Assembly (NCBI RefSeq): GCF_036971445.1
Contig: NC_091469.1
Span: forward strand, 218,798,001-218,862,000
Direction of reading: 5' to 3'
DNA length: 64,000 nt
Source of the DNA: Narcine bancroftii
Taxonomy: Eukaryota
A model generated the notes under the pieces. It worked only from the letters and a program-made list of their open reading frames with translations. It was not told the origin of the DNA and did not search any database. Numbering within the stretch: position 1 is the first letter of the stretch; each line of letters opens with the position of its first letter. The position numbers and the translations under genes were made by a program. Positions 12,140 through 57,712 of this stretch are shown here, one piece after another.

Positions 12140-12343
12140 TGTGGCGCGCTGTGATAGCAACAAGCAGACACCAAACACAAAAGACTGTACTACAGGCTTT
12201 ATTCTGCTAAAAGTCTGTGCACACCAGTTTCAGCTGTGGTGGCTCCTGAGTGACTGGCTCAGGAGGGACCAGCTCAGGCTTATATTCTGGTCGGCAGGTA
12301 CAGAGATCGCCCCCTTCAGTAGGCTAGTGGTTGTATCATCACA
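12140..12343 (-). mobile_element. Gypsy solo LTR of the same family as 26749-27050
   Basis: The reverse complement aligns to the G1 LTR with an internal gap. Perfect 5-bp TSD AGTGG (12135-12139, 12344-12348). Confidence 0.88.
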
Positions 12344-13054: not shown

Positions 13055-14339
13055 TTCTTCTTTGGCTTGGCTTCGCGGAAGAAGATTTATGGAGGGGGTA
13101 AAAAGTCCACGTCAGCTGCAGGCTTGTTTGTGGCTGACAAGTCCGATGCGGGACAGGCAGACACGATTGCAGCGGTTGCAAGGGAAAATTTGTTGGTTGG
13201 GGTTGGGTGTTGGGTTTTTCCTCCTTTGCCTTTTGTCAGTGAGGTAGGCTCTGCGGTCTTCTTCAAAGGAGGTTGCAGCCCGCCAAACTGTGAGGCGCCA
13301 AGATGCACGGTTTGAGGCGTTATCAGCCCACTGGCGGTGGTCAATGTGGCAGGCACCAAGAGATTTCTTTAGGCAGTCCTTGTACCTTTTCTTTGGTGCA
13401 CCTCTGTCACGGTGGCCAGTGGAGAGCTCGCCATATAACACGATCTTGGGAAGGCGATGGTCCTCCATTCTGGAGACGTGACCCATCCAGCGCAGCTGGA
13501 TCTTCAGCAGCGTGGACTCGATGCTGTCGACCTCTGCCATCTCGAGTACTTCGACGTTAGGGGTGTAAGCGCTCCAATGGATGTTGAGGATGGAGCGGAG
13601 ACAACGCTGGTGGAAGCGTTCTAGGAGCCGTAGGTGGTGCCGGTAGAGGACCCATGATTCGGAGCCGAACAGGAGTGTGGGTATGACGACGGCTCTGTAT
13701 ACGCTTATCTTTGTGAGGTTTTTCAGTTGGTTGTTTTTCCAGACTCTTTTGTGTAGTCTTCCAAAGGCGCTATTTGCCTTGGCGAGACTGTTGTCTATCT
13801 CATTGTCGATCCTTGCATCTGATGAAATGGTGCAGCCGAGATAGGTAAACTGGTTGACAGTTTTGAGTTTTGTGTGCCCGATGGAGATGTGGGGGGGCTG
13901 GTAGTCATGGTGGGGAGCTGGCTGATGGAGGACCTCAGTTTTCTTCAGGCTGACTTCCAGGCCAAACATTTTGGCAGTTTCCGCAAAGCAGGACGTCAAG
14001 CGCTGAAGAGCTGGCTCTGACTGGGCAACTAAAGCGGCATCATCTGCAAAGAGTAGTTCACGGACAAGTTTCTCTTGTGTCTTGGTGTGAGCTTGCAGGC
14101 GCCTCAGATTGAAGAGACTGCCATCCGTGCGGTACCGGATGTAAACAGCGTCTTCATTGTTGGGGTCTTTCATGGCTTGGTTCAGCATCATGCTGAAGAA
14201 GATTGAAAAGAGGGTTGGTGTGAGAACACAGCCTTGCTTCACGCCATTGTTAATGGAGAAGGGTTCAGCGAGCTCATTGCTGTATCTGACCCGACCTTGT
14301 TGGTTTTCGTGCAGTTGGATAATCATGTTGAGGAACTTT
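13055..14339 (-). mobile_element. RTE-clade LINE, 5'-truncated, subfamily A; open 404-aa RT C-terminal frame (13112-14326)
   Basis: GVKQGCVL, LLFADD, QFTYLG and the terminal CxxC...SRIGLVSH zinc knuckle, with a (GAA)n tail. Confidence 0.95.
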
Positions 14340-14344
14340 TGACA

Positions 14345-15110
14345 TTGACATCAAGGCATCCAGGTAAACCTGATTAGTGGCCAACAAATGCAAGACCCTG
14401 CAGAGGCTAGAATCACACCTTGGACAAAGAGAAAGATGGATGCGATTGTCCAAAGCCATTCATCCTCTGTCCCAAGACAGCATAGTAGGACTGTTCTTTA
14501 ACCATTTTAACCCTTTCCTACAATCATAAGGAGTTGGGGATGTTTCCCAATATTTCATTCTATTTGTGACTTCATGCCTGGATGCAGCAAAACATAGACA
14601 AGTGGCAAGTAATATTTATCCCCCAAAAGGGCCAGGAAATGACCATCACCAACAGAATGTCTAACTACCTACCCTTGATATTCACAGAGTTCCCCTCCGT
14701 TGCTCTCATGGGGGTCACTATTAATTAGAAGCTCATTTGGTCATTCATAATGCATGGCTGAGGCTGGTTGACTTGTCTCCTGGCATCTCACATCTTTCCA
14801 CCATCTGAAACCCATCAAGAATTTGATGGAATGCTCACTGTGCTCTTTGATGGGTGCAGCTCCAGGACAAATCAGCCAGCATTACTGGCACTCCGTTAGT
14901 CACATAAACATTCATTCCCTCCACCATTGACACCCAGGAAATATATACCTAAATACTTAATCTATAAAATCCACTACAGTCACTCATGCGGGCTACTCTG
15001 TCAGAACCTCCAAAATCCTTTGCCTCCCCAAGGAAAAGGACGCACAGGTGTGTACGAACACCTCCAGCTTCCCATCCAAATCACGACCTTCCTGACTCGG
15101 AGATTGATCA
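14345..15110 (+). mobile_element. Old L2/CR1-group LINE fragments, continuing from ~12620-12677
   Basis: An FDQV*HQG...LESHL RT motif is split by the 12678-14344 insertion; a WQVIF motif follows downstream. Confidence 0.5.
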
Positions 15111-21170: not shown

Positions 21171-23216
21171 TTAACAAATTAGAAATAAAATATTCAATAA
21201 ATAATATTTCTCTATAGCCTTTCTTTCTTTGGCTTGGCTTTGCGGACGAAGATTTATGGAGGGGGTAAAAAGTCCACGCCAGCTGCAGGCTCGTTTGTGG
21301 CTGACAAGTACGATGCGGGACAGGCAGACACGATTGCAGCGGTTGCAGGGGAAAATTGGTTGGTTGGGGTTGGGTGTTGGGTTTTTCCTCCTTTGCCTTT
21401 TGTCAGTGAGGTGGGCTCTGCGGTCTTCTTCAAAGGAGGTTGCTGCCCGCCAAACTGTGAGGCGCAAAGATGCACGGTTTGAGGCGTTATCAGCCCACTG
21501 GCGGTGGTCAATGTGGCAGGCACCAAGAGATTTCTTTAGGCAGTCCTTGTACCTTTTCTTTGGTGCACCTCTGTCACGGTGGCCAGTGGAGAGCTCGCCA
21601 TATAACACGATCTTGGGAAGGCGATGGTCCTCCATTCTGGAGACGTGACCCATCCAGCGCAGCTGGATCTTCAGCAGCGTGGACTCGATGCTGTCGACCT
21701 CTGCCATCTCGAGTACTTCGACGTTAGGGATGTAAGCGCTCCAATGGATGTTGAGGATGGAGCGGAGACAACGCTGGTGGAAGCGTTCTAGGAGCCGTAG
21801 GTGGTGCCGGTAGAGGACCCATGATTCGGAGCCGAACAGGAGTGTGGGTATGACAACGGCTCTGTATACGCTTATCTTTGTGAGGTTTTTCAGTTGGTTG
21901 TTTTTCCAGACTCTTTTGTGTAGTCTTCCAAAGGCGCTATTTGCCTTGGCGAGTCTGTTGTCTATCTCATTGTCGATCCTTGCATCTGATGAAATGGTGC
22001 AGCCGAGATAGGTAAACTGGTTGACCGTTTTGAGTTTTGTGTGCCCGATGGAGATGTGGGGGGGCTGGTAATCATGGTGGGGAGCTGGCTGATGGAGGAC
22101 CTCAGTTTTCTTCAGGCTGACTTCCAGGCCAAACATTTTGGCAGTTTCCGCAAAGCAGGACGTCAAGCGCTGAAGAGCTGGCTCTGAATGGGCAACTAAA
22201 GCGGCATCGTCTGCAAAGAGTAGTTCACGGACAAGTTTCTCTTGTGTCTTGGTGTGAGCTTGCAGGCGCCTCAGATTGAAGAGACTGCCATCCGTGCGGT
22301 ACCGGATGTAAACAGCGTCTTCATTGTTGGGGTCTTTCATGGCTTGGTTCAGCATCATGCTGAAGAAGATTGAAAAGAGGGTTGGTGCGAGAACACAGCC
22401 TTGCTTCACGCCATTGTTAATGGAGAAGGGTTCAGAGAGCTCATTGCTGTATCTGACCCGACCTTGTTGGTTTTCGTGCAGTTGGATGATCATGTTGAGG
22501 AACTTTGGGGGACATCTGATGCGCTCTAGTATTTGCCAAAGCCCTTTCCTGCTCATGGTGTCGAAGGCTTTGGTGAGGTCAACAAAGGTGATGTAGAGTC
22601 CTTTGTTTTGTTCTCTGCACTTTTCTTGGAGCTGTCTGAGGGCAAAGACCATGTCAGTAGTTCCTCTGTTTGCGCGAAAGCCGCACTGTGATTCTGGGAG
22701 AATATTCTCGGCGACACTAGGTATTATTCTATTTAGTAGAATCCTAGCGAAGATTTTGCCTGCAATGGAGAGCAACGTGATTCCCCTGTAGTTTGAGCAG
22801 TCTGATTTCTCGCCTTTGTTTTTGTACAGGGTGATGATGGTGGCATCACGAAGATCCTGAGGCAGTTTACCTTGGTCCCAACAAAGCTTGAAAAACTCAT
22901 GCAGTTTGGCATGCAGAGTTTTGCCGCCAGCCTTCCAGACTTCTGGGGGGATTCCATCCATACCTGCTGCTTTGCCACTTTTCAGTTGTTCGATTGCCTT
23001 ATATGTCTCATCCAGGGTGGGAACCTCATCCAGCTCTAGCCTTAGGGGCTGTTGAGGGAGCTGGAGCAGGGCGGAATCTTGGACTGAGCGGTTGGCACTG
23101 AAAAGAGATTGGAAGTGTTCTGACCATCGGTTGAGGATGGAGATCTTGTCGCTGAGGAGGACTTTGCCGTCTGAGCTGCGCAGCGGGCTTTGGACTTGGG
23201 GTGAGGGGCCGTACAC
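21171..23216 (-). CDS. RTE reverse transcriptase frame (681 aa); lacks the endonuclease and native start, so probably not expressed
   Basis: KAAGMDGIPPE, NYRGITLLS, QCGFR, FVDLTKAFD, GVKQGCVLAP, LLFADD, YLG and a C-terminal CxxC-H motif, with no frameshift. Confidence 0.85.
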   Translation of the reverse strand: MYGPSPQVQSPLRSSDGKVLLSDKISILNRWSEHFQSLFSANRSVQDSALLQLPQQPLRLELDEVPTLDETYKAIEQLKSGKAAGMDGIPPEVWKAGGKTLHAKLHEFFKLCWDQGKLPQDLRDATIITLYKNKGEKSDCSNYRGITLLSIAGKIFARILLNRIIPSVAENILPESQCGFRANRGTTDMVFALRQLQEKCREQNKGLYITFVDLTKAFDTMSRKGLWQILERIRCPPKFLNMIIQLHENQQGRVRYSNELSEPFSINNGVKQGCVLAPTLFSIFFSMMLNQAMKDPNNEDAVYIRYRTDGSLFNLRRLQAHTKTQEKLVRELLFADDAALVAHSEPALQRLTSCFAETAKMFGLEVSLKKTEVLHQPAPHHDYQPPHISIGHTKLKTVNQFTYLGCTISSDARIDNEIDNRLAKANSAFGRLHKRVWKNNQLKNLTKISVYRAVVIPTLLFGSESWVLYRHHLRLLERFHQRCLRSILNIHWSAYIPNVEVLEMAEVDSIESTLLKIQLRWMGHVSRMEDHRLPKIVLYGELSTGHRDRGAPKKRYKDCLKKSLGACHIDHRQWADNASNRASLRLTVWRAATSFEEDRRAHLTDKRQRRKNPTPNPNQPIFPCNRCNRVCLSRIVLVSHKRACSWRGLFTPSINLRPQSQAKERKAIEKYYLLNILFLIC

Positions 23217-23243
23217 AGCCTTTAGAGCCTCGTAGAAACCCCT
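21221..23243 (-). mobile_element. RTE-clade LINE, 5'-truncated, subfamily A (longest copy)
   Basis: Complete RT domain. CCTTT direct repeat at both junctions (21218-21222, 23241-23245). Confidence 0.95.
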
Positions 23244-26537: not shown

Positions 26538-26719
26538 CAGGGGTGGTCAACCTTTTAATTTTTAATTTAGACACACAGCACAGGAGCAGGCCATTTCTGC
26601 ACAGGAGTACGCACTGGGGGTATGGGTCAATTGGGCAGTACGGACCTATGGGCTGAAATGCCCTGTTACCGTGCTGTATGTCTAAATTAAATTTTGAATT
26701 AAAAGGTTGGCCACCCCTG
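26538..26719. mobile_element. hAT MITE
   Basis: TIRs CAGGGGTGGTCAACCTTTTAATT / AATTAAAAGGTTGGCCACCCCTG; TSD CTCTAGGC/CTCGAGGC. Confidence 0.85.
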
Positions 26720-26748: not shown

Positions 26749-27050
26749 TGTGGTGATATGACCACCAGCCTACTGCAGGGGGCAATCAATGTACCTGCAG
26801 GAAGACCACCTAAGGGCTGACTCCACCTGGCTTGCTGTCAATCAGCCGACCTGAATAGACCCCAAGGGGGCTGACTCCACCTGGCCGGCTGTCAATCAGC
26901 TGACCCAAACATAGACCTGAACCGGCCCCTCCTAGGCCAGTCACATGGGAGTCACTGAAGCATGAACTGATGTTCAAACATTTATCTGAATAAAGCCTGT
27001 TGTAGTCTTTTGAGTTTTGTGCTTGCTTGCTGTTACCTCAGTGCACCACA
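26749..27050 (+). repeat. G1 5' LTR
   Basis: TGTGGTG...CACCACA termini, AATAAA at 26989-26994; homologous to the solo LTR at 12140-12343. Confidence 0.88.
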
Positions 27051-29208
27051 ATTTATTAAGATAAAATTTAAAAGAATGACCATGGAAAAGTTCCTGTCGA
27101 TCGGGAGCTTGGAGTTTGGAGTTCGATCCTCAACGCCCAGAGGCCCAGGCATGCTTTGAGATCTGGAGGTATGGAATTGAGGTGATCATCCTGATGCAGT
27201 TGGAGGTGATTGACACAAATCAGAAGCAACTCATGGTGCTCCGCACAAAGTTGGGCCCCCAGGCCTTCCAGGCCACCAAGGACTGCACCAACTACAAAAC
27301 AGCGATGGCCATCCTGGAAGCCATGTACAAACCCCCGACGAACGTGGTCTCAGCAGCCAGGTGAGACGGCAGATACATACCTGGGGACCTACAGGAGCTA
27401 TCCTGCCCGTGCCTGACCGAGACTGGGGTGGTCCAAAGGGGGAAGTGGAGTGATTGATCTGAGATGCTTGCATGCGAGGTCTGCGGTCGAGGAGTGCCCG
27501 GCAGAAACTGCTGGAAGATAACATCACCTCACTTACTAGGACTATAGAGGTGGTCCACTCCCTGGAGGCTGCAGCCCTTCATGTCAAAGTCTTCGACTCC
27601 TGACTCCCCCAACACCCAGTCTGGCTGACACAGATGACTGCCATAGCCGAAGTACCGCACATAGAGGAGACCATTGCTGCTGCTGGCACCCCGCGCCCCT
27701 GTTGAGTCCTGGTGTGGGTCAGACAGGCAACCCCACAAAGGCTGCCCGCGAGGAACTCATACTTCTCCCGATGCAGAAAGAAGCTACACAAAAGTGCTCC
27801 AGACTGGCTGGGAGCCCAGTGGCCCAACGCCATCACTCACCCCACCACCTCCGGTTCTGCCACTGACCAGCACTGCTGCAGTGTGCTCCCCTCAGCCGGC
27901 TTCCGCCAGGACTGCTGAAGTCACCTCCACCAGTATGAGAGATGTAACTTCTATCAGTATGGATGATGCAACCACCTGTCCCACAGACAAAGGGGATGCC
28001 TGACCAGGCTGACTCCATGTGCGCCCACAGGACACCACTATCTTGGGCCAGTCAGGCCCTGACGGCATATCAACAGGACAAGATGGTCAACACAGGCATA
28101 TACCAGATCGCCCACTCGACGCACCCAATGGTTGAAAAGGAAACCACTGACCACTACTCGCCTCATCCATTGGGGAGCAACGACTTGGACCCAGAGATGG
28201 TCCTAGCATCTACCACCATAAAAAGGGACATTCATCATGGACTCGGGTGCTCAGTGATGGACATCACTGTCAATGCGAAGGTAACAAAATGCCTGTTTGA
28301 TAGCAGTAGTACTGAGAGCTTCGTACCAATTTTGCTATAGCCTTCGCAGCCCAAGACCACTCTATCAAAGCCCTCAGGCACTGCTTGGCAGATCTGACAG
28401 TGGGGGGGGAGAGAAACATACCATGGGTTCAGGCTCCTGGTTATGCCCAAACTCTGTGCCCCAGTCCTTTTAGGGCTGGATTTCCAGTGCCACCTCCAAA
28501 GCATTACCCTCTCTTTCGGCGGGCCACATCTCCCGCTCACAATCCAGATTGCTCAGCCCAGCAACTACCCCAGTCCACCTGTGGGCTCTCCACGCTGTGA
28601 ATAACCCCCTCTGCCCTCTTATGCCAGATTGCAAGCACATAGCGGCCAGGAGCAGATGCAATTGCACAACCAATCGGGGCTGAAGTGAGGCAGCTTCTGG
28701 CAGAGGGTATCATAGAGCACAGCACCAGCCCCTGGAGATCCCAAGTACTGGTGGTCAAAGGAGGCAGCAAACAGAGGACGGTCATCGACTACAGCCAGAC
28801 CATAAACCAATGCACACAGCTGGGTGCCTACCCCTACCCAGAATAGCCGACATGGTAAATGAGATAACCCACGGTAAGGTATTCTGCACGATTGACCTAA
28901 AGTCAGCCTATCACCAGCTCCCTATTCATACACGAGACAAGCCATACACCGCATTCGAGGCAGATGGGCACCTCTACCAGTTCCACCGAGTTCCGTTTGG
29001 GGTCACTAACAGGGTCTCTGTTTTTCAGCGGGAAATGGACCTCATGGTAGACCTGCACAACCTAAGAGTGACCTTCCTCTACCTGGACAATGTCACCATC
29101 TGCGGCTACGACCAGCAGGACCACGATGACAACCTGGAGAGATTTCTCTGGATGGCCAAGGAGCTGAACCTCACTTGCAATAAAGAGAAGTGTATGTTCA
29201 GCGCCATC
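26749..29208 (+). mobile_element. Gypsy LTR retrotransposon G1, 3'-truncated (5' LTR, gag, protease, RT), decayed
   Basis: gag ATG at ~27082, CLFDSSSTESF protease, and PLPRI, IDLKSAYHQLP, VPFGVTN, YLDNVTICG. Confidence 0.9.
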
Positions 29209-32178
29209 CATTTCACCCCAATCCTCCAGATGGGTACGTTCATGGTCGACATTTTATGTGTCATAAAGCTGTTGCTGGAATGGCTGAACTTGCAGTCATT
29301 GCATCTCACAAGAACTGGTTACCAGGCTAAATTTCATGTATTTCTCGGTGTTTCAGTTATTTGGTCACCAAAAGGATCCAGTGGAGGAGGATCCGAGCAA
29401 TTACTTTTCACATGGGTGATAGAAAGATTCCTCTATAGTCACTGCAGTACGTCTTGTCTCCGTTCGTGAATCACAGCCTATACGAGGGCCCCTGTCATAG
29501 ACTCCTCTTTTCAGGTGGGAATGATGATGTGGTGGATTTATAAGAGAAGATCATCACTGTTGACTTATTGGACTTCAATGGAGATTCCATTTAAACTAAA
29601 TTTTCTTATCTCCTCCCTCCCCCCCCACCTCCCCGCCCCACCACATGTCAAATATACCATGCCAGATGACCTGACTTTTCCTACCATGGCTTTGAATTTG
29701 CCCAGTAGATCTGCCCAGATGGGGAGGGGGGGGGGGGGAGGGACTGTTGATGGCTGCTTGAACAGAGCCTGCAGTGGGCCCTCTGGTTCGTGGAACGTTC
29801 TTCTTCACCTGAAACTGGCGGACATTTTATAGCATCTATTTGTAACCTGCCTCCTTGTGCCATTGTCTGGTTTCTGAAAATTGATTGCATGTGGCATTGT
29901 ATTGTTAGGCAGCTTTTTTTACCGGGTCAGGAGAACGCTATCTTGCTTTTAATGCTGTGTGGGGTGTTAATTGCAATAAAAAATGAAACCAGATAGATGC
30001 CCTGTCGCCCTCTGGGAAAGAGTCCAGGGTTTTTCAGGGGATGGAAGTTCTCTTTTGTTTCATCCCTTGAGGGAAGGAGTGCTGTGCCTGCGCTCATGAA
30101 CAGGGGGTTGATTCAGTGTTGGAGTGAGCTGACATGTTGATCTATGACCTTCCCTTCGTGACTCAAAATTGGTTGCAAGCAATTCATGTGCAATCTCTGC
30201 AAGAGCTGATCTGTGCCAAAACTCAGAAGATCATCTCACCAGAGATTGCACGGAACGTTGAGCACATATTTTTAGACTGCAGTATAATTCGGAGCAGAAA
30301 TATTCCCAGAACAGTTAAAAGCCTGTTGTAGGTGTTCAGTGTTATGGGAAGGAGAGGGGGCAGGTGTGTTCACAGAAAACCATTCAGATTGTGACTTTCT
30401 GCAGCACAATATCCCTTTCCCTTCAATCTCATGTTACATATGGAGACATGCCTACAGGATGTTTTTTTTTATCCTTTCCCATTCAGCTACATTACTGGCA
30501 ATGACAGCTGGTATTTAATGGCCGACTCTGGAGAAGGGGCAAGGCTTGTGTGAAGCAAAACAAACTCTGCCATTATTTATTTTTGCTCACTCAGTACTTG
30601 TGCTTGTAGAATATGGATACAACCTCTTCACATACCCTCAGACAGGAGAGGATGTGGCAAAGGAGGGACTTGGCTGTGACTGCAACATCATTAATGCAGT
30701 GATATCATATTTAATAATATTGCCCACTGCATTGAATCAATAAAGGATAAAAACTGGCAAAATGTATTGTTTTTTCCCCCACTGAGTTTATTTACTTATT
30801 CAACATAAATTCCATAAGAACAGATTTTATTCCATATTTAAATTCCTGGAAAGTGATTTGCAAATCCTGCAAGGATTAACTTCTGTTACCCAAATGCCTA
30901 TAATCAACAGGGTCACCTGTGCTATTGTCAGGAGAAGATTGTTAGTGGGGCTTTGAGATGCTTCAGTAAATGCACCTTAATCCTGTGTGAACGCAGCATG
31001 TTATGAAAATCATTATGCAATTAAATATATATTATTGACATTTGTTAGCTCGTACAGATTTGGATTAGATTAGGTATACACATTTTTCATTTTGGTTTCT
31101 CAGCAGGTGGAGATTTAAAGAGCTGACTTTCTCAGTTACAGACACATATTGAGTCAAAATTGTAGGCAAAACTTCATTTCGACGTGCACTCCCTGATACT
31201 TCGTGCTTGATGCTACTGTGACTTTTATGCTCTTGCCCAAGTATGCAGACACACCGATGTAAACCACATGAAAAAACATTTATGTAAAACAATGCTGGAT
31301 TCTTTACTTCGCATCTGATGCTCTGAGCATACACAGAGCATCATGCAGAGGAAACGCACACGAGGTTTGTCCAAAGGAAATGAATTAACAAGCAACAGTA
31401 CCACACCCTAAATTTTAATATGCTGAATTTACATGAAGAAGTCTTTCTGCCAAATTTATAAAACCCTTGCTCCAAATTACAAGGACAGCATCAGAAGTTG
31501 GGCCCTGACCCTGCAGGATCTCATTCTTAGTCAGACCATGGCATTCAATGACACCTTGCTCGCACTGCAGTTTTGTGGGTTGTGAGATGGCCAACAAGGA
31601 AACTGTAGTCTCTTCCACAGACCCGTTAGTCCAGGCTGGTTGTTGGTCTTTTTGGCAATGCACTTCTGTTTGCTCTGTTTGAGGCTCTTCATACTAACTT
31701 AAACGATTCCCATTCACTTTGAACAGTCATGGATCGCAGCTGGTGGCACAAGAGATTGCAGACATTGGAATCTGGAGTGATACATTATCTGCTGGAGGAA
31801 CATGGGTGAAGCAACAGTAGTGGGAGAACGAAGAACTGTCATTGTTTGGGGGGGGAGCAAACTCTTCATAAGGACTTAATTTTCCAGGAGTCAGTGGGGA
31901 TGTAGCTCTTCTTCCAAGAAGGTTTGAGCATATCCTTTGATGTTTTATTCTACATACCTGGCAATCTGTCAAAAAGACGCTGCATGTCCTGTTGCACAAC
32001 ATAGCAGATTGAGAATAGCCAGGGCCTTGTTGCTGGGGAAAGATGTTGACACTAGTTTGCTTATCCTCCAGTGGATTTGAAGGATTTTGTCCAGACTGAA
32101 TTGATGGCATTTCCCACCACCCCCCTCCCCCATTGTCTTGGGATGCCTGCTGTGTATAGTCCAGGTCTAAGGAATGAT

Positions 32179-32369
32179 TAAAGTGAACTGGGATTCACTG
32201 ATAGTGTGTTGTGCTGATGGCTGGCTCTGCCTCCTAGCTCCGCACCCATCTGCTCATATATAAACCTTGGTTTCCATCCTGAACCCAAAATCCTTCCAAA
32301 GACTACTGTTAGAAGCTAATAAAAGTGTTTGTTCTCCTTCCAGTCGTGAGAGCTTTTATTTGCGCTACA
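32179..32369 (+). repeat. G2 5' LTR
   Basis: Aligns with 36187-36391; TATATAAA at 32257, AATAAA at 32318. Confidence 0.88.
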
Positions 32370-35300
32370 ATTTTATTAGCTTATCCCCTAAATGATGGAA
32401 GTGCTACTCAAGACAGGGATTGCTGTTGATAGACCCTCTAATCCCCTGATGCAGCTAAGGAGTTCACGTACTGGCTGGACTGCTTCCAGACCTACCTGAA
32501 TGCAACCAGGGACTGTCTTCCACGCCAATGAACTCAGGTGGTGTGCACTAGTTTCTAGGGTAGGAACAAAAGGGTATGCAGTCATCAGGGACTGCACTAC
32601 ATATGATGCTGCCATCGAGGCATTGAGGGCTACGTACCTGAAGTCGCAGAACGAGGTCCTAGCGAGGCACTAACTCACTCTACGTCGCCAACATTCAGGA
32701 GAGATCATCAATAACTACCTGCTGGATCTGTGGACGCTTGCCAAGAAGTGCAGGTACGAAGCTGTGTTCATGAGGAAGAACAGATCCAGGACACTCAAGT
32801 CACGTGGTTCCGCTCAAGGGTCATGAGGCAGTGACTGAGTCGGATAAGAAAGATCTGGCTAGCCACATTCAACTGGCCAAATCAATGGAACAGGCCAAGC
32901 TTGAGAATGACAACCTCAAAGCCAGCAAGCTCACTCACCCTGGTGAGACCTTCCAAGGACTGGCTGCTCCCATTACCCCAGCCCTAACTGCTGCCGCTTC
33001 CCGTGCTAGGAAGTGCTTTTTATGAAGAAAGAGCTAGCATTCCTGATCTTGTTCCATGGCTAAAGACTCAGTGTGTTCCAGCTGTGGCAAGGACATTGGG
33101 TGAGGTTTTGCTGCACAAGGGGAAGCCCAGGGATGTCCATGACTTGCACCACTCCCGGATCAGATTCCAGCACCAAGCCGTCTGCCCTGAATTCACCCAA
33201 ACCCACTTGCTGCGCTACACGCTGATGGAGGGTGTCTGAGGAAACAGTGTGAAAAGGCTCAGTGACCATCTTGCTGCAACCCAAATTCAAATTCAGTGCT
33301 ATCATACCCACACAGGGCAATCCAGGATGGTGGGTGCCACTCGAGTGAGGAGTATGGATTCTCCGGGGTCTAAGCCTTAATGGTCCTGGATCAGGACCGA
33401 CCTCACCCGCTCAGCAATTCCATAATGACTGTGAAAGTAAACAGAAATTCCACTAAATGCCTAATCGACACAGGCTCTATTAAAAGCTTCATAGACTCAC
33501 GGACTCTGCGAGAATACAACCTAAAGATGCATCCTTCCAATTATTGCATATTCCTTGCATCTCATTCGCATTTTACACATATTCAATTACATTGTATAGT
33601 ACATCTGTCCTTTGAAGGGGGGAGTTTTGTAAGAAATGCCTGTATGTACTTCATGAATTGTGTGCTCAGGTGTTGTTGGGTCTGGACTTCCTGTGTCATC
33701 TTAAAAGCACGGCCTTGGAGTATTCTGGTCCCCTCCCCCCATAACGGTTTGGAACAGAGGGCCCCTAAAATCAGAACCCACATGCAGCTTCTCCACACTG
33801 AATATCAACCCCCTCCCCCCCCCCCCCAACGTCTCTTCCCGAATCTGTCCTCAGACTGCAAACCTATTGCTACCAAGAGTAGGAGGTACAGCACAGCAGA
33901 CTGAGATTTCATACAGTTTGAGATACAACATCTGCTCGAAGAAGGTATCATTGAACCTAGCACCAGCCCGTGGAGAGCACAAGTGGTAGTGATAAAAGGG
34001 GAAAACAAGTCCAGGACTATACCCAAACTATTAATCGGTACACACTCCAGGACACATAACCCCTCCCTTGAATTTTGGACATGGTGAATGATATTATGCA
34101 GTATCAGGTCTATTCAACCATCAATCTGAAAGCGGCTCATCATCAGCTGCCAATCCATTCTGAGGACCAACAATATATGACATTTGAGGATAACAGTCAT
34201 CTCTATCAATTCCGGAGGGTCCCCTTTGGTATCACTAATGGGGTTTCTAACTTCCAGAGGCAAATGGACAGAATGCTGGATGAGTATTGGTTGAAGGCTA
34301 CCTTCCCCTACCTCAATAATGTCACCATATGTGGCCACACCATGCAAGACCATGACACCAACCTCCAGAGTTTTCTCCATGCGGCGAAAGCCCTGAACCT
34401 CACTTATAACTGACAAGTGCATATTCAGGACAAAATGTCTGGCTATCCTTGGTCACATGATGGAGAATGACATCATTGGCCCCGATCCCGATAGGATGCG
34501 CCTCCTGTTAGAGCTCCCCATTCCCAGAGCCACGAAGGCTTTGAGGAGATCCCTGGGGTTTTTCTCATATTACACCCAGTGGATCCTTCAATACACTGAT
34601 AAGGTTCATCCTCTCTTAAAAGCCACTAACTTCTCCCTCTCAGCTGAAGCCCAAACGGCTTTTAACTACATCTGTAACCACATTGCAAAAGCCGCCATGC
34701 ACGCAGTGGATGAGAATGCATCTTTCCAAATGGAAAGTGATGCTTCGGACATAGCCCTACCAGGAAGGCCGGTTGCTTTTTTTTTTGGTTGGACATTACA
34801 AGGCCACGAGCTCCAGAACCAATCTGTGGAAAAGGAGGCTCAAGCCACTATAGAAGACATGAGGCACTGGAGACACTACCTGACTGGTAGAAGATATACG
34901 CTCCTCACTGACATGCATTCATGTTCAATAATGACAAGAGGGACAAAATCAAGAATGACAAGATTGCCAGGTGGAGAATCGAGCTCTCCACCGACAATTA
35001 TGACATTGCCTATTGGCCAGGAGCCCTTAATGACCCTCCAGATGCCTTATCCAGAGGAAGCTGTGCCTCTGCACACACAGGCCAACTGCGGTCTCTGCAT
35101 AATGAGCTCTGCCATCCAGGGGTTACCGCATGGTTCATTTTGTCAAGGCGTGCAATCTGCCCTACTCCATGGAAGATGTCAGGCAAATGATCAGGTCTTG
35201 CAAGCTGCACTTCTACTGCATCTGATCAAGACATCCAGACCCCTTGGATGGCTCAATGTCAATTTTAAGAGACCTCTCCCCTCCATGAATGGGAACACTT

Positions 35301-36186
35301 TCTTCCTCTCTATCATTGAGGAGTACTCCCACTTCCTGTTCACCATCCCATGTCCAGACACGTCCACTTCATCAGTCATAAAGGCTCTAGTTTCAATTTT
35401 CACCCTGTTCAGGTATCCCAGCTATATTCATAGCGACCATGGCTCATCCTTTATGAGTGACGAGCTACATCAGTGCATGCTGGTGAGGGGTATCACACCC
35501 AGCAGGACTACTAGCTACAACCCGCAGGGGAACAGGCAGGTTGAAAAGGAGAACACCATGGTCTGGAAGGCTGTCAAACTAGCCCTGAAGTCAAAAGACC
35601 TTCCACATTCACACTGGCAGGAAGTCCTTCATATGATGCTCCATTCCATCCAGTCACTACTATGTACCGTGACCAACGCTAACTCATCACGAAGTATCCT
35701 TTAAGTCTGGCTCAACCCTCCTGGTCCAGTCCTTCTCAGGAAGCAAGAGAGGAGAAGCAAGACTGACCCCCCTGGTGGAAAGGGTGAAACTGCTCCATGC
35801 CAATCCCACGTATGCCTATGTGGAGTACCTGGATGGCAGGGAGGACAGTCTCCATCAGGGGCCAGAACAGAGGGTCCATTTGCTCAGGGGCTCTGTGAGC
35901 CATGGAGCTCATTCTCACCACCCCCAGTCAGGGCCTCGGGGGATCCAGTTCAGGAGGAAAGTGCACTCCCCCTCTTCACCGTTGAGCCGGAGACCCAGCC
36001 TGCCTCCCCTCCTTCACAAGGGGACCAGAACACCCAAGGACTTCCAGTGCTAAGGCATTCCACCAGGATCTCCAGACCCCTGGACTGCTTAAATCTGTAA
36101 ATAATTGTATATTTTTCTACTTTTTTTTCTGAACCCATGTTGTCTGTCTTCATTCACAGACCCTAAATTCTAGAGGAAGGGGTGAA

Positions 36187-36391
36187 TGCAGTGAACTGGG
36201 ATTCACTGGTAGTGTGTTGAGCTGATGGCTGTCCCTGCCTCCCCCCCACTCCCAATCTGCCCACATATAACCCTAGTTTCCCGCTTAAACCCAGAACCCT
36301 TCTAAAGACCACTGTGAGACCTACCCTTATTTATAGGCTAATAAAAGCATTTGTTCTCCCTCCAGTTGTAAGAGCTTTTATTCACGCTACA
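36187..36391 (+). repeat. G2 3' LTR
   Basis: Follows the PPT, has TG...CA termini and aligns with the 5' LTR. Confidence 0.9.
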
Positions 36392-38520: not shown

Positions 38521-38574
38521 GCTACATAGCAGGGCTAACCAGAAACTATGGTTGGACACAAAGCTCCAAAGGTC

Positions 38575-38735
38575 ACGCCATCTGCAAACTTGATGACACT
38601 GTTGGAGCTGAATCTGATGATGCAGTCGTGGTTTTGTAGCATGAACAGGAGTGGGCTGAGCATACAGCCCTGAGGTGTGCCAGAGCTCAGCATCATGGTG
38701 CTCGACATTCTGCTATCAACCAGGACAGACTGTGG
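38575..38735 (-). mobile_element. Inverted Rex1/Babar RT fragment
   Basis: SSGTPQGCMLSPLLF...SVIKFAD; inverted homologue of 39520-39672. Confidence 0.8.
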
Positions 38736-38739
38736 TCTC

Positions 38740-41385
38740 ACTTCTCAGAGCTCAATATGCAGCCTTCATGACAGGAGGCAAGTTGGCACCAAGATCAGCC
38801 AGGGCTGAACTCTCCCATGCAATCCAGAAGGCAAACATAGAGGAATCCAGAATCAGCTGTCTGACACTGGCAACATGAGGGGCATGTGGCAAGGCATCAA
38901 AACAGATCACAAGAGAATCTTTGAGTCAACGACAGCGAAACCTCCCTTCTGGACAGACTGGACATCTTATGTAATCATTTTTTGATGAGAAGAGCAAACT
39001 GATGCCAAAAAAAGCCGTGTCCTCTTGAAGAGGAAAACCTTGTGTAGCTGCAGCAGAAGTGAGGAGGACCCCATCTAGGGTGAACCCCGCGAAGCAGATG
39101 GACCAACTGCAGAGGTCCTTATGGCGATCATCAAAATATTATTACAACAGTCTATCATTCCCACAGGTTTCAAGGGAGCCATTATCCTGGTGCTAAAGAG
39201 GATGACAGCAACAGGCCTCAACGGCTACTACCCAGCAGCACTAATCTCCACCATTTTTAAGAGCTTCAAGTATCTGGTGATTGAAAGCATCAAAGCACAC
39301 TTCCCAGAGACATTGGACCCATTTCAATTCACCTACAAATGGAACTATTCCATTGATGATGCTATAGTCTTGTCTCTCCACTCCATCCTGACCCACCTAG
39401 AGAATGACCTCAGATTCCAAGTTGTTGTTCATGGACTTTAGCTTAGCGTTTAATACAAGAAGCTATCCTTGCTGGGATTTACTTTTCTCCATCTCTAACT
39501 GGAATTCCTAACAAAGATGGCAGTCTGTCCTGGTCAACATCAGAATGTCAAGCACCATTACGCTGAGCACTGGCACACCTCAGGGCCGTGTACTCAGCCC
39601 ACACTCGCTCACGCTATAAAACCACGATTGCATCACCAGACTCAGCTCCAACAGTGTCATCAAGTTTGCAGATGACATGACAGTAGTCGACCTCATCAGC
39701 AACAACGTAGAAGAGGCGGAAGATGTCATGAAATGGAGCAAGAATAACAACACGAGTCTCAACGTGGCAAGACAAAGGAGATGATTGGGGACTTCAGGAG
39801 GACCAGTGGTGATCACCCTCGATGACATGAATAACTCTGTAGCAGAGAGAGTGGAGAACACAAAGTGTAGAGCATTGGATCAAGGATCAATCCACTGGAC
39901 CGTAAAAGTGTCAGGTCTCTGGGGTGTCCTCCCCCATAAGTGATTTACTGGATAATTGTTTAAGGGGGGAAAGGTTTGAGAAAGAGGGGAGGAGGCGGGA
40001 GGGGGGAGGAGGCAGGAGGGGGGAGGAGGCAGGAGGGGGGAGGAGGCGGGAGGGGGGAGGAGGCAGGAGGGGGGAGGAGGCAGGGGGGGAGGAGGCGGGA
40101 GGGGGAGGAGGCGGGAGGGGGAAAGGGGGAGGGGGAAAGGGGGAGGAGGGNNNNNNNNNNNNNNNNNNNNNNNNNNNNNNNNNNNNNNNNNNNNNNNNNN
40201 NNNNNNNNNNNNNNNNNNNNNNNNNNNNNNNNNNNNNNNNNNNNNNNNNNNNNNNNNNNNNNNNNNNNNNNNNNNNNNNNNNNNNNNNNNNNNNNNNNNN
40301 NNNNNNNNNNNNNNATGTGGAGGAGGTGATCACTGATCCTCACTGATTATGATCTGCCAGATAGGAGGTTGAGGATGTCGACGCAGAGGGTGGGTGGGGT
40401 TCCGAGAAAGGTCTCAGAGCTTGTGGATGAGGGGGGAAGGAGGGATGGGGAAAGAGGGTGGGGGGAAAGAGGGAGGGGGAAGGAGAGGGGGAAGGGAGAG
40501 GAGGAAGGGAGAGGGGGAAGGGAGAGAGGGNNNNNNNNNNNNNNNNNNNNNNNNNNNNNNNNNNNNNNNNNNNNNNNNNNNNNNNNNNNNNNNNNNNNNN
40601 NNNNNNNNNNNNNNNNNNNNNNNNNNNNNNNNNNNNNNNNNNNNNNNNNNNNNNNNNNNNNNNNNNNNNNNNNNNNNNNNNNNNNNNNNNNNNNNNNNNN
40701 NNNNNNNNNNNNNNNNNNNNNNNNNNNNNNNNNNNNNNNNNNNNNNNNNNNNNNNNNNNNNNNNNNNNNNNNNNNNNGGAAGGGGAAAGGAAGGGGGGAA
40801 AGGAAGGGGGGAAGGAAGGGGGAAAGGAAGGGGGAAAGGAAGGGGGGAAAGGAAGAGGGAAAGGAAGGGGGGAAAGGAAGGGGGTAAAGGAAGGGGGGTA
40901 AAGGAAGGGGGGAAAGGAAGAGGGGAAAGGAAGGGGGGAAGGAGGGGAGAAGGAGGGAAGGAGGGGGAAGGAGGGGGAAGGAGGGGGGAAGGAGGGGGAA
41001 GGAGGGGGGAAGGAGGGGGGAAGGAGGGGGGAAAGAAGGATAGATGGAGGATAGATGGATAAAGCAGGGATGACCCCCACCACCCTGCAGACAGCATCTT
41101 CCAGCTTCTCCCATTGGGAAAGAAAGAGATACAGAAATATCAGAGCCAGAGCCACCAGACTGAGGAACAGCTTCTTCCCACAGGCAGTTAGACTGGTAAA
41201 ACAATTTTTTGTGACTTGACTATGTATAATAATATTTTTATATTCATGTACATGTGTTTATGTATCATTTGTCTGTGTGTTGTGTACTGCGTTTTGCACA
41301 GTTCTGCACCATCATCCGGAAAATGCTGTTTTGTCGGGTTGTACTGGTACAATGGAATGACAAATAAACAAACTACATATTTCAA
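38740..41385 (+). mobile_element. Rex1/Babar LINE, decayed, interrupted by purine-rich tracts and gaps
   Basis: MWQGIK, LDPFQF, GTPQG, IKFADD; resumes at ~41070 with DDPHHP...RLRNSFFPQAVRL. Confidence 0.8.
39965..41050. repeat. Polypurine low-complexity tracts ((GGAGG/GGAAGG)n) with N gaps at 40151-40314 and 40531-40777
   Basis: Directly visible. A short minus-strand Rex fragment lies at ~40315-40430. Confidence 0.95.
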
Positions 41386-44300
41386 TTAACCAATGTACAT
41401 GCTGCTAGGAAGGTTGTGTTCTGCTTGGTTGGACTAGCCTGCAGTATCAGAATCTGATGGAAACTGAGCTCTCATCTGCTCTCCACACCTTCTAATAATT
41501 ATCAGAGTATCTCCAATATTCATCCATGCAGAAGGTTGTAATTGTAACTTTCTCGTGAGCAAGGCACGTTGAATTTCAATTACTTAGAGCTGCATTTGAT
41601 CCAATCAACAATGCATCAGCCAGAGGGTAAAGGAAAATTTGTAACAGCCAGCTTTCATTTGCCTGGGCATCTTGATGAAAGAGCTGGCCAATGTGGCCTT
41701 AAATAACACACACCAGCTGCCCACTTGAAATGGGCAATGAGGCAGGGGTAGGCAGAGGAATGTGATTGTATGGCCGACAGAAGAGCCTGTCAAGTCTCCG
41801 ATACGATGGGAAGAGCCTTGGATTGAAAGGTGGGGGGGGGGGAGTGTTGGTGGTGGGAAGCTCTTGGCAGTCAAAGCCCAATATTAACGCCTCAAGGATT
41901 ATTCCTTCTCCTTCCATAATCATAAAGTCAGCTCTGCTGGTCTGATCACATCTTTTGCATGCACCACCACTACATAAAGATGGCATTTCTGCATTCTTGA
42001 TCCATAGCCTTTCAAGCAAACGTGACAGCAGAGTGCTGTCGACCAGATACATAGCCCAAGGATGTTTGGTAGAAAGTGATGCTGAATACTACATACAGAT
42101 GTGAACAATGCAAAACTCTCAGCTCAGTTCCTTTGTAGCCCTTTCACTTCACAATATTCCATCCAGCACCGATTCAAATAGCAATTCCATGTTAAAACCT
42201 GAATTTACTGACCACATTAAGAGGATTGGATATAGCGAATCATTAAAACCTTCCTTCACTTGTTTTGTGACGTGATCAGAAATGTGAAAAACTGTGTCTC
42301 TCCACAAATGCTGCTTGACCGTTTCACATTTAAAAAAAAAATTTCAGATCACCAGAATTCACCAACCTTTGATTTTATTATTTAAATGCAAGATTGAATG
42401 GAATGTGTCTTGGAAATGCCAACTCTATTTTCCAGAGTAAATATAGCTCAAACTTCATCTTGTTGATCATCACTGAGCAAGCAGCCGATCTCTTTAAGGG
42501 CAGCATATACATCAGGTATGCCCGAGTTTTTTTTTCCCCAGGACAAATTGATCATATTGTTGGACTTTATTTACTTCTGGGGTGGGGTGGGGGGGGGAGA
42601 GAGAAAAAGTCTATTATGTGTTTCAGCCAAGGGTACTGCATACAGATTATTGACCTTTGACCTTTATCTATGTAGTAGGCACATCTTGGTTATACTGAAC
42701 CATCAGCCTTCCATGTTGGAGGCAAGGAAAATGTAGACCCAACTAATAGAACCACGCCACCAAATTTCTAAACCAATATGCTTTCATGCTGTGACTTGGT
42801 GGATAAATATAGAATAAAACAACATTTCTCTTCTTTCAACATTGTACAGCCACTGGAGAACACAAATGAGCATAGGCTTTGATGTCTCATCACAAAGGAA
42901 CTGAAATGGCAGGGCTTGGAATCACCAAGGTGCAGACCATACTGCCCATCAAGACCTTGCTGGCTAGATTATAGAACATTTCAGCTCAACCCAGCCTTGC
43001 ATTTTTTTTTCCTTCACGCATCCAACAGACTCGACTATATTTGGCTCCACTGCTCTTGCTAATACATTTTAAAACCGAATCACTTGGTATGCAAAAAAAC
43101 CTCGTATCAGGTTTTTCCCAATCATCTTTATTCTATTTGCCCTTCTTTCTGACCTCTCTGCCAACCTGAACAAAAATCTTTCTGTGTATTCTGGGGTTTC
43201 AATGACTATAAGTTTTCCTGCAGAAGCCTCATTCCCAACAGGAACAGCCCAAGATTATCCAGTCTACCCACAAAACAAAGGTGTCTTATCCGTTAAATTA
43301 TTTTCGCAAGCCTTCAGTTACAGGCTTCAGGTATAACTACTGCTACTGAGACAAAATTCAGGGCTTAAGATAAACCTACCATTATTGTTACGAACCACTA
43401 CATTTAGAATGTAACATGTATGAGTCAAGAATGGAATTTCAGTCTTCCAGAGGGAGATGGACTGAATGGTGGATGACCACCAACTGAAAACCATGTTCCC
43501 CTACCTGGACAACATGACCATCTGTGACCATGACGCCAACCTGCAAAAGTTCCTCCAGACAGCAAAAGCCTAAACTTCACTCATGACCAGAAGAAATGAA
43601 TGTTCTGCACTTCGTATCTGACTATACTAGGGCACGTGGTGGAGAATGGAGTCATTTGACCTTACCCTGAGCGTATGTGGCCCCTGCTGGAACTCCCATT
43701 CCCCCATAACCTCAAGGACCTGAAAAGGTGCCTGGGGTTCTTTTCATACAATGGGCCCCAAATTATGCAGGCAAAGCCCGCTCCCTGGTTAAAAATTAAT
43801 ACTTTTCCCCATCTGCAGAGGCCCAAGTGGCCTTCACTTGCATCAAAGGCAACTTTGCCAAGGTGGCGATGCATGCCATAGACAAATCCATCCCATTTCA
43901 GGTGGAGAGCAATGCGTCTGACTTTGCCCTGGCTGCCACGCTGAACCAGGCAGACAAACCATGGCATTTTTCTCCCATAACCTCCAGGGCCCTAAACTCC
44001 AGCACTCAGTCATTGAAAAAGAGGCCCAGGCCATAATGAAAGCTGTGCGCCACTGGAGGCATTATCTAGCTGGCAAACTGTTCACCCTGCTGACTGACCA
44101 ACATGAGATCGCATTCATGTTCAACAACAAACAGGGGGGATAATTTAAGAATGACAAGAACCAGAACTCTCCACCTACAATTATAAGATTTTTGTACCGG
44201 CCCAGGAAGCCCTGTCACATGGTATCTGCACCAATGTGCAAGCAGATCGCCTCTCAGCCCTACACAGCAGCCTCTGCCACTCCGGGCTCAATCACTTAGT

Positions 44301-45421
44301 GAGAGTCCAAAACCTCCCGTACTCTGTTGAGGACATCAGGGAGCTGACCCACAGCTGCCTGGCCTGCGCACAGTGCAAGCCGCACTTCTACCAGCCAGAG
44401 AAAGCTCACCTGATTGATGCCACCCTCTCCTTCATATGTGCAAGTATGGATTTCAAGGACCCCCTCCCTTCTATGAACCAGAGCGTGCATTTTCTCAAAC
44501 GTTGATGAATGCTCACAATTCCCATTCGCCATCCCCTGCCCAAATACGACTACACCCATTATCTTAAGTCCCTGCGTAACCTCTTCACGGTCTTTGGATT
44601 CCCGAGTCATATTCACATTGACTGGGCGGGTCCTCATTTATGAGCGAGGAGTTGCGCAATACCTACTGGCCAAAGGCATAGCCATGAGCAAGACCACCAG
44701 CTATAACCCCTGAGGGAATGGCCAGGTGGAAAGGGAGAACGGCTCCATTTAGAGGGCAGTTCTCCTGGGCCTCGTCAAAAGGGCTGCCTGTCTCCCAGTG
44801 GCAAGAGGTCCTACCAGAGACATTCCACGCCACCAGGTCCCTCCTCTGTACAGTGAGGAATGTGACCCTGCATGAAAAATTATTTTCCTTCCCCAGGAGA
44901 TCACATTGGGAACAATGCTACTGGTTTGGCTGATGACGCCAGGACCTGTGCTACTCTGGAGACACACCAGAACCCACAACGCAGACCCCCCCGATCGTGA
45001 AAGTCCACCTCCTCCATGCAAACCCCGAGTATGCCTACATGCAGAACCAGGATGGGCAGAGAGACATTGTCTCTGTCCATGATCTATCTTATACTGGGCA
45101 CCACCCCCAATTGAAAAGCACACTGAACTGACCATGGTTGAATGACCAGCTCCACTCCCCATCCCCAGAACTAGCATAGACACAGTCAAGGATGTGACCC
45201 CACCACCCACCCACCCACTTCCCCAAACCAGCTTCAATTGATTCTATTCTTCCATCTGAATCGCAGCCCGTCAGAGCACTGCCCAGGAGCCTACAGCAAC
45301 ACTGCAGCCAGCACTCCGATGGTCAGTTCGACGGACGAAACCGCTGGACAGGCTAAACAAACTCTAACACTTCACCCCGCCGGATATTATTTCAAGAGAA
45401 GGGGTGAATGTGGTGGAACAT

Positions 45422-48249: not shown

Positions 48250-48489
48250 AACATGGTATTGCAGCCATTGTACCGGTTGGCCCGCCCCTGACACTGTAAC
48301 TCCTCCCCCTCCAGGATTCCTAATAAAGGTGGTATCGCCCAATCACCTCCCTCAGTACTGCCGTGGAATCGGGCCAACAGCATGTAAGCTATGACTAAGT
48401 TTGTAGCAATTAAAGCCTATTAACCTCAATGTCTGGTCTGTCAGGTCTAGTTGATAGCACTACAAATGCCCTGGTGAAGCCATTCCAAA

Positions 48490-50982: not shown

Positions 50983-51527
50983 CACCAGTGTTGTCTCCGC
51001 TCCATCCTCAACATTCATTGGAGCGACTTCATCCCTAACATCAAAGTACTCAAGATGGCAGAGGCTGACAGCATCGAATCCATGCTGTTGAAGATCCAAC
51101 TGCGCTGGGTAGGTCACGTCTCCAGAATGGAGGACCATCGCCTTCCCAAGATCGTGTTATATGGCGAGCTCTCCACTGGCCATCGAGTCAGAGGGGCATC
51201 AAAGAAGAGGTACAAGGACTGCCTAAAGAAATCTCTTGGTGCCTGCCACATTGACCACCGCCAGTGGGCTGATATCGCCTCAAACTGTGCATCTTGGCGC
51301 CTCACAGTTCGGTGGGCAGCAATCTTCTTTGAAGAAGACCGCAGAGCCCACCTCACTGACAAAAGACAAAGGAGGAAAAACCCAACACCCAACCCCAACC
51401 AACAAATTTTCCCCTGCAACCGTGTCTGCCTGTCCCGCATCGGACTTGTCAGCCACATACGAGCCTGCAGCTGACGTGGACATTTACCCCTTCATAAATC
51501 TTCGTCCGCGAAGCCAAGCCAAAGAAG
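50983..51527 (+). mobile_element. RTE-clade LINE 3' fragment, subfamily B
   Basis: High identity to the other RTE copies. Confidence 0.92.
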
Positions 51528-51669
51528 GCTAGTAATAGAATGATTCAACCATTTCTCAAAATGAGGTCTCAAATTACACAGGTTGAGTAAGGATGCATTT
51601 GAAAAGCCACATAGATTCTACATACACAATTACCCAAAAAAAGGAGTTGGATTATAAAATAAGCTGTCA

Positions 51670-56718: not shown

Positions 56719-57712
56719 AAGTGGTTTTCAAACTGCCCCCCTAAACTCACATTCTTCTTCTTCTTTGGCTTGTCTTTGCGGACGAAGATTTATGGAGGGG
56801 TAAATGTCCACGTCAGCTGCAGGCTCATTTGTGGCTGACAAGTTTGATGCGGGACAGGCAGACACGGTTGCAGCGGTTACAGGGGAAAATTGGTTGGTTG
56901 GGGTTGGGTGTTGGGTTTTTCCTCCTTTGTCTTTTGTCAGTGAGGTGGGCTCTGCGGTCTTCTTCAAAGGAGGTTGCTGCCCACCGAACTGTGAGGCGCC
57001 AAGATGCACGGTTTGAGGCGATATCAGCCCACTGGCGGTGGTCAATGTGGCAGGCACCAAGAGATTTCTTTAGGCAGTCCTTGTACCTCTTCTTTGGTGC
57101 ACCTCTGACACGATGGCCAGTGGAGAGCTCGCCATATAACACGATCTTGGGAAGGCGATGGTCCTCCATTCTGGAGATGCGACCTACCCAGCGCAGTTGG
57201 ATCTTCAACAGCGTGGATTCGATGCTGTCGGCCTCTTTCATCTCGAGTACTTCGATGTTAGGGATGAAGTCGCTCCAATGAATGTTGAGGATGGAGCGGA
57301 GACAACGCTGGTGGAAGCGTTCTAGGAGCCGTAGGTGAGGACCCATGATTCGGAGCCGAACAAACTCACATACTATTTTAAGTAATCCCTATGCCATAAG
57401 TGCTCTGTGATTAGTAAGGGATTGCTTAAGGTGGTTTGTGAGTGAGAAGGGAAGATTAAGAACCACTGCTCTAGACCCAATTGTTACTGAAATACTTTGT
57501 TTGAGAAAAATTGTTTTTGGCCTATTTCCTCTGGAGTTATGAAACCGTTCACATAATAAGTCAATTAGGTACGATTAAAACATTGGTTTTCAAATCTTTT
57601 CTTTCCACTCACATACCACCTTAAGCAATCCCTTACAAATCACAGAGCACCTATGGCTTAGGGATCACTTAAGGCGGAATGTGAGTTTAGGGGGGCAGTT
57701 TGAAAACCACTG
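56719..57712. mobile_element. Composite hAT MITE made of two inverted mini-MITEs, interrupted by an RTE
   Basis: Outer TIR AGTGGTTTTCAAACTGCCCCCCTAAACTCACAT / ATGTGAGTTTAGGGGGGCAGTTTGAAAACCACT. Confidence 0.85.
56753..57361 (-). mobile_element. RTE-clade LINE 3' fragment, subfamily B
   Basis: 10-bp TSD AAACTCACAT (56743-56752, 57362-57371) and a (GAA)n tail. Confidence 0.93.

Follow-up and report, generated by a model that had tools for sequence, protein, structure and literature searches.

Complementarity between leader and LTR points to self-primed reverse transcription in a clade of animal Ty3/Gypsy retrotransposons

We analysed a 64,000-nucleotide stretch of the Narcine bancroftii genome (the window; positions are those of its forward strand), in which the 5′ half of a Ty3/Gypsy element, G1, begins with a long terminal repeat (LTR) at 26749–27050. 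This 302-nt 5′ LTR runs TGTGG...CACCACA and carries a 54-nt tandem duplication inside U3; its ends are set by genomic copies and by solo and 3′ LTRs that diverge right after CACA. Within it lies a segment, P (26981–26994), that ends in AATAAA (26989–26994) and is followed by the rest of R and U5 (26995–27050). A single spacer base, A (27051), separates the LTR end from a second segment, P′ (27052–27065); 13 of its 14 positions match the reverse complement of P, the sole mismatch being at 27058. The gag ATGs at 27076 and 27082, 26–32 nt past the LTR, stand at the head of a decayed gag–protease–reverse transcriptase (RT) region (27076–29210) detected with Pfam RVT_1 and tblastn, which contains stops and frameshifts and whose RT is interrupted near 29210. 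No 3′ LTR of G1 is present in the window. An integrase-like stretch on the minus strand (29210–29510), apparently from another element, truncates the RT, and a 180-nt MITE-like palindrome (26538–26719) lies immediately upstream of G1. An earlier note on this DNA had read CACCACA ending at 27050, the spacer A and the 13-of-14 pairing, and had equated this register with that of a neighbouring element, G2; positions and letters are as it gave them, and in both elements the spacer is A and pairing ends at the last A before G.

Both stretches are AT-rich and might pair by chance: 21 of 9,020 14-mers in the window score 13 against their own upstream 304 nt. In dinucleotide shuffles of the G1 LTR, however, 13 of 14 was reached in 0 of 20,000, the best score being 12, once. 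Scanning the whole window for CA, one nucleotide and TTT with at least 12 of 14 pairs returned three sites (27050, 32369 and 45655), all of which are LTR ends of elements from one clade. The same register recurred in every family examined, against 1 of 300 and 1 of 2,012 control scans (see below). Chance complementarity is refuted by this clade-wide register, and we give it next to no credence.

The second site belongs to G2 (32179–36391, forward strand), a 4.2-kb element of the same clade with a 5′ LTR at 32179–32369, a polypurine tract at 36172–36186 and a 3′ LTR at 36187–36391; its two LTRs are identical at 158 of 188 positions. P (32311–32324) and P′ (32371–32384) of G2 pair at 13 of 14, and 24 of 30 G2 copies pair at 13–14. 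G2 and its relatives have the gag–protease–RT–RNase H–integrase order, TG...CA direct repeats and polypurine tract of Ty3/Gypsy elements. The third family (45409–45670, forward strand) has an LTR at 45409–45655, a P that ends in ATTAAA (45601–45614), a spacer at 45656 and a P′ at 45657–45670 that pairs at 14 of 14; 16 of 20 copies pair at 13–14 and the remaining four at 12. Its LTR is common to two elements (43424–48210), with pol and a polypurine tract upstream and a leader and gag–pol downstream, the tandem form that published accounts of Tf1 describe for integrase-independent insertion. Few 5′ junctions showed such shared-LTR tandems: of 101 loose motif matches, four did, two of them convincingly. 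A 35-nt GC-rich tandem repeat of about seven copies (45824–46071) lies within gag of the downstream element. Elsewhere in the window, solo-LTR-like remnants of the clade occur at 12140–12295 (minus strand) and at about 48250–48465, one related to G1 (73%) and one from another family. When loci of other families in this genome were chosen by gag similarity alone, 17 of 30 paired at 13–14 of 14 compared with 1 of 300 control scans, and the spacer was 1 nt in every family examined.

We fetched 60 G1 loci from the 3.3-Gb genome and obtained 43 distinct copies in which LTR, leader and the start of gag are all present. P paired with P′ at 14 of 14 positions in 18 copies, at 13 in 15, at 12 in four, at 11 in three and at 10, 8 and 6 in one each; 33 of 43 copies thus pair at 13–14, and the base at 26980 gives a 15th pair in 33 of 43. 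The loop between P and P′ measured 47–62 nt, mostly 57–58 nt. The duplex is sharp on its LTR side, with a spacer that is mostly A (37 of 38 junctions) and pairing from the last A before G. The earlier note had expected the mismatch to revert to a pair in a family consensus. Taken copy by copy instead of by consensus, the mismatch at 27058 proved private to the window copy: one other letter stands in 42 of 43 copies and, in 38 of them, finds its partner in the LTR of that copy. At the centre of P and P′, three bases vary as several subfamily types, and the 3-nt core of the leader fits the copy's own LTR in 29 of 43 copies, where random dealing expects 10.3 (0 of 20,000 as high); the copies are related and this co-variation tracks subfamilies, amounting to a handful of events rather than 29. 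A TGG-initiated primer-binding site (PBS) was sought after the LTR in the G1 and G2 copies and none was found. The note's argument that so short a leader leaves no room for a conventional PBS fails, as 26–32 nt would fit an 18-nt site; the case against a tRNA site is made because TGG is absent and the leader changes in step with the LTR.

A profile of 42 polyproteins retrieved 80 metagenome loci, of which 40 had a gag start and 35 had at least 150 nt of upstream DNA. P:P′ pairing at 12–13 of 13 was present in 29 of these 35 relatives, compared with 1 of 2,012 control scans, and TGG occurred within 6 nt of the LTR end in none of the 35. The six sub-threshold relatives comprised two decayed members of a family above the threshold, two with G–U besides 10 pairs, one with an 11-bp duplex outside the scan window and one left unexplained. 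The 29 pairing relatives represented 19 different 11-mers of unrelated sequence, with perfect duplex runs of 11–19 bp, mostly 13–15 bp; wherever a 3′ LTR was present, it placed the LTR end one base before P′. The base after P was G or A (RCC/RCG/RCT-type) in 18 of 19 sequence types, and exactly GCC or ACC followed in 16. That G1 is an independent instance without a tRNA-type site, as had been proposed, holds and extends clade-wide; the earlier note put forward no mechanism.

The clade (41 rows) formed a single group with SH-aLRT 100 in a quick tree, apart from 18 other Gypsy RTs that we take from their motifs to resemble Mag and Gmr1. Its elements are 4.2 kb long with a single open reading frame (ORF), and their gag has two CCHC-like boxes. 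Twelve polyproteins scanned with an E cut-off of 0.05 showed no chromodomain, nor did the precomputed domains among the 66 and 120 matches listed include one. The genome held 16 chromodomain matches, none with an RT match beside it in the DNA examined, and the one read closely looks like a host gene. Among the matches listed, the nearest named proteins were from rays and sharks, and others came from sea anemone, Trichuris, tapeworm, crustaceans and damselfly; no clade relatives were found in viral contigs. Matches in the PDB were only to foamy-virus, Ty3 and retroviral integrases. The gag matched eukaryotic CCHC gag clusters without names in a protein atlas, and a gag search of representatives returned 391 clusters at 1e-30, none of them named. 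The Cigr-1 clade of Ciona intestinalis, molluscs and annelids has elements of ~4.2 kb with ~245-bp LTRs, one ORF of ~1,200 codons and a SURL-like gag; going by size and gag type, our clade may be Cigr-1. A published reference table places Cigr-1 under ‘Mag’ (PMC6238403, supplement 1).

In LTR elements, the right end of the LTR is set by the start of minus-strand synthesis, and since synthesis begins there, a primer must pair at the base after U5. The only partner that we found for this position, across unrelated sequences, was the element's own P. We conclude that the observation is real and clade-wide and is best explained as self-priming: the 14–15 bases after the LTR are probably the binding site for an RNA primer that is cut from the element's own 5′ transcript and replaces a tRNA. 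Pairing, its fixed register (CA, one base, duplex), co-variation, the absence of TGG and the fold-back insertions joined in P′ that are described below are seen directly in the DNA; the steps that follow are those that self-priming would predict. The 5′ RNA would loop back so that P, the likely primer, pairs with P′ at the PBS position, leaving 26995–27050 of G1 as the loop. The element's RNase H would then cut at the 3′ end of P (26994/26995 in G1), between AAA and RCC in most families, and this sharp, conserved boundary fits a fixed RNase H cut. RT would extend the cut end of P through U5 and the remaining R, copying them into the predicted minus-strand strong-stop DNA. The repeat for strand transfer would span the region between the cut and the poly(A) site. 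Plus-strand synthesis would copy the primer and rewrite P′ from P in every cycle, so that co-variation would arise without slow compensatory selection, and the plus strand would be left with a single-stranded P′ tail. A primer built by splicing was considered and is not needed, as P is contiguous in the DNA.

The partner of the leader had been described as the poly(A) region. This stands for G1, in which P ends in AATAAA; each of the three window families, and 9 of the 19 relative types, likewise have a P that finishes with AATAAA or ATTAAA. As a conserved feature the poly(A) region does not stand, because the other 10 types have neither hexamer, so it is the pairing and not the poly(A) signal that is conserved. 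In HIV-1, which is primed by a tRNA, a poly(A) hairpin within R/U5 masks the 5′ AAUAAA. The duplex here would similarly sequester a hexamer in the 5′ leader, whereas its partner is the primer-site position. Hiding the 5′ signal against premature termination might be all that the duplex does, something else providing the primer, and the leader does exist only behind the 5′ LTR. We nevertheless consider this improbable: the duplex is retained in the 10 types without either hexamer, its register relative to the LTR end is fixed to the single base, TGG or another primer site was found in 0 of 35 relatives, and the junction of insertions that have two U3 ends and target duplications falls inside P′. 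Masking of the 5′ poly(A) signal where P holds a hexamer would be a likely extra benefit of self-priming and cannot be the core function. Alternatively, a host RNA (a tRNA fragment or small RNA) could prime at P′, with P a by-product copied into the LTR, and half-tRNA priming exists in some Copia lineages according to one survey (PMC6317226). One host RNA cannot fit P′, because P′ is wholly different among the 19 types and yet always follows its own LTR, including the 3-nt subfamily changes; we regard host-RNA priming as very unlikely. No tRNA genes were found in the window.

The insertions that join inside P′ are fold-back structures. At one G1 locus (L019), a full LTR and the spacer are followed by an inverted LTR that runs from P back to the U3 tip, with a 5-bp direct repeat flanking the whole. 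Matches to this junction pattern in the genome numbered 37 for G1, 48 for G2 and 172 for a younger, fourth family, with 0 in reversed controls. Among 30 G1 loci fetched, 21 had an inverted U3 to its tip (two of them better read as rearranged solo LTRs), one nearly so, four a short inverted piece and four ordinary sequence. Both U3 tips were kept in eight G1 loci, five with a perfect 5-bp duplication, one with 4 of 5 and two with none at 5 bp. For G2, 20 loci fetched gave 10 genuine inverted continuations and 10 with ordinary sequence, and three of the 10 continuations jump into gag at microhomology after 11–13 further bases. The 30 sequences fetched for the younger family represented 22 loci, of which 13 reach the U3 tip and two keep both tips, one with a perfect duplication. 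The total of fold-back insertions with a perfect 5-bp target duplication was six. Because the inserts, flanked by a target duplication, stop at the LTR tip and do not continue as inverted flank, we infer that integrase acted on extrachromosomal cDNA having two U3 ends. The fold-back insertions are likely to be folded-back cDNA, as expected if P′ is the PBS. Their simplest origin would be a plus strand ending in the primer copy P′, whose tail pairs with P, either on that plus strand or on another, is extended to the U3 tip and integrates with two U3 ends.

A fold-back reveals a free end or a template switch in P′, and not whether the 5′ or the 3′ RNA copy of P primed. If the RNA 3′ end, or a second packaged RNA, paired with P′ and were cut right after the hexamer, the primer would be continuous with U3. 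The other strand of the fold-backs reads U3–P joined to the complement of U5, a junction that priming by the 3′ copy would make directly; in ray-like families the poly(A) hexamer marks the end of P, and some inverted arms extend past both candidate transcript starts considered below. However, the inverted arms end at the U3 tip rather than at the polypurine tract or internal region, a plus-strand fold-back suffices to produce them and involves no new step, and a 3′ primer would cost the same RNA the repeat required for strand transfer. The literature examined offered no precedent for it. We judge priming by the 3′ copy to be unlikely and retain the 5′ copy as the probable primer. Two further uses of the insertions were tried and rejected: the end points of partial inverted arms are no ruler for the transcript start, as they scatter over 25–140 nt and end at microhomologies, and palindrome geometry accounts for left arms beginning close to the predicted cut, which are thus no independent evidence.

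Two candidate transcript starts precede P in G1, using general definitions of TATA-like and initiator-like motifs. A TATA-like box and an initiator-like motif 31 nt apart (26909–26943, with the A at 26939) mark, on motif counts, a candidate distal start 55 nt before the P 3′ end, and an initiator-like (or 3′ splice-site-like YAG) motif at 26974–26980, degenerate in the window copy, marks a candidate proximal start just 5′ of P. Three families have a TATA-like box followed ~30 nt on by an initiator-like A, at −53 to −55 from the P 3′ end, and families also carry an initiator-like motif 17–19 nt before that end. In partial counts of G1 copies, 14 of 38 had the A at −55/−56 with the 31-nt spacing and 25 of 38 had a perfect YYANWYY at −18. 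Transcription may start ~4 nt or ~40 nt upstream of P; going by the promoter motifs, the primer may lie ~40 nt into the RNA, which would set it apart from that of Tf1. A distal start would leave ~40 unpaired bases 5′ of P and no obvious stop for plus-strand copying.

The lowest-energy fold of the window G1 copy favours a U5–leader stem over P:P′, and whole-region folding of window copies gave weak z-scores (0.06, −0.44, −2.35 and −1.29, with one folded stretch lying outside the LTR). Flanking ‘pretzel’ duplexes of the Tf1 type reached p<0.05 in 1 of 29 copies for each of the two, with combined p values of 0.10 and 0.47. A hairpin beginning at the predicted cut occurred in 11 of 20 metagenome types (combined p ~1e-4, the types not being independent) and in 1 of 8 families of this genome. 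In G2, U5 (32317–32362) includes a second sequence complementary to the element's AATAAAAG stretch, this one internal; each LTR could thus form a hairpin of the poly(A) type, which would rival the leader duplex.

Published work, as far as it was covered here, ties self-priming to the Tf1/sushi and Tcn1 chromoviruses and, by prediction, to the plant Copia TAR lineage (PMC4600332, PMC3601003, PMC6238403, PMC7175516, PMC6934838, PMC5006619, PMC6317226, PMC7472051, PMC3670739, PMC8556966, PMC5341516, PMC11042837, PMC10085805, PMC2864245). Tf1 and Tf2 of Schizosaccharomyces pombe, Tj1, Tosmo and Tcry1 are described as self-primed Ty3/Gypsy chromoviruses of the Tf1/sushi group (PMC7175516, PMC10085805), with which our clade shares the absence of a tRNA site, a sequence after the 5′ LTR that is complementary to its own LTR and the Ty3/Gypsy domain order. 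About half of Tf1 cDNA is reported to retain a 3′-terminal PBS copy that is single-stranded, and tandem Tf1 elements with a shared LTR also form (PMC11042837); this tail and these tandems match the footprints of the clade. Two further duplexes surround the primer in Tf1/sushi, giving a three-duplex ‘pretzel’ (PMC10085805). Unlike Tf1/sushi elements, the clade is without an integrase C-terminal chromodomain (0 of 12), and the search for flanking pretzel duplexes did not support them; unlike Tf1 it has a duplex of 11–19 bp, mostly 13–15 bp, rather than the 11 bp given for Tf1, and a primer that often holds a poly(A) hexamer. Its 4.2-kb single-ORF elements and double CCHC gag also differ from Tf1, and its primer may lie ~40 nt inside the RNA whereas that of Tf1 starts at the first base. 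On the best reading, the clade would work like Tf1 but lack two features of Tf1/sushi membership, chromodomain and pretzel. The plant Ty1/Copia TAR lineage (Houba and Osr-1) and moss Tcn1 chromoviruses are predicted self-primers by a like criterion, stated as at least 10 bases complementary to the LTR and starting 0–5 nt after the 5′ LTR (PMC6317226), and the leaders of our clade carry such a stretch. Unlike our clade, TAR belongs to another superfamily and Tcn1 to a chromoviral clade, and their hosts are plants.

Self-priming is proven only in fission-yeast Tf1, is viewed as a mark of Tf1/sushi chromoviruses and is predicted for one plant Copia lineage. The literature that we searched contained no self-priming in a non-chromoviral animal Gypsy clade and no such fold-back insertions; subscription papers, Repbase and GyDB lay mostly outside this search, and the original Cigr-1 description, Butler et al. 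2001 and Repbase may anticipate part of it. If our reading is true, self-priming by an animal clade that is widespread and has neither chromodomain nor pretzel would mean that tRNA-free priming is common and has probably arisen repeatedly, would bear on a late origin of tRNA priming, a question raised in the literature (PMC3601003), and may bear on escape from tRNA-fragment silencing. It would explain elements that annotation tools leave as ‘no PBS’, and the fold-back insertions would record an intermediate of reverse transcription in the genome and give rise to palindromes and tandem arrays. As a broader proposal, which we put forward tentatively and hold to be possible rather than probable, a large animal Gypsy clade that lacks a chromodomain, and whose named matches include cnidarians, nematodes, cestodes, arthropods, sharks and rays, would have gained self-priming independently of Tf1/sushi. 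It would use an internal RNA primer ~40 nt from the cap that often contains the poly(A) signal and is cut between AAA and RCC without flanking duplexes, and its primer-copy tail would give rise to integrated palindromic LTRs and young LTR–primer-site tandem arrays.

Other rearranged copies were seen beside the fold-backs. In chimeric insertions (L097, L098, L324, L336, L337 and L347), U3 and the primer segment are followed by the complement of U5 and then a jump to internal sequence; that of L098 bears a 5-bp target duplication. Young tandem arrays have a 278-nt unit consisting of the LTR, the spacer and ~45 nt of inverted LTR from the primer site, rejoined to the LTR start (L338–L343 at G000:C9:30112838-30114255; L327–L329; G000:C11:238647253-238650058; C9:294234673-294235533). 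One array has 6.9 copies at 99% identity and another has 11 junction matches, and in L332 the 278-nt unit precedes a normal leader and gag. These arrays look like a minimal LTR–primer-site element amplifying in tandem. In a G2 subfamily (L129, L132, L133, L135 and L139), the leader resembles a longer, ~24-nt inverted copy of LTR sequence lying 5′ of the hexamer, as though too long a copy of the primer had become fixed. Elsewhere in the window, related LINE-type RT fragments occur at 13112–14350, 21171–23243, 50983–51535 and 56760–57313, mutually 91–94% identical, and an inverted repeat of 161 nt (86%) lies at 38572–39681, its arms ~800 nt apart.
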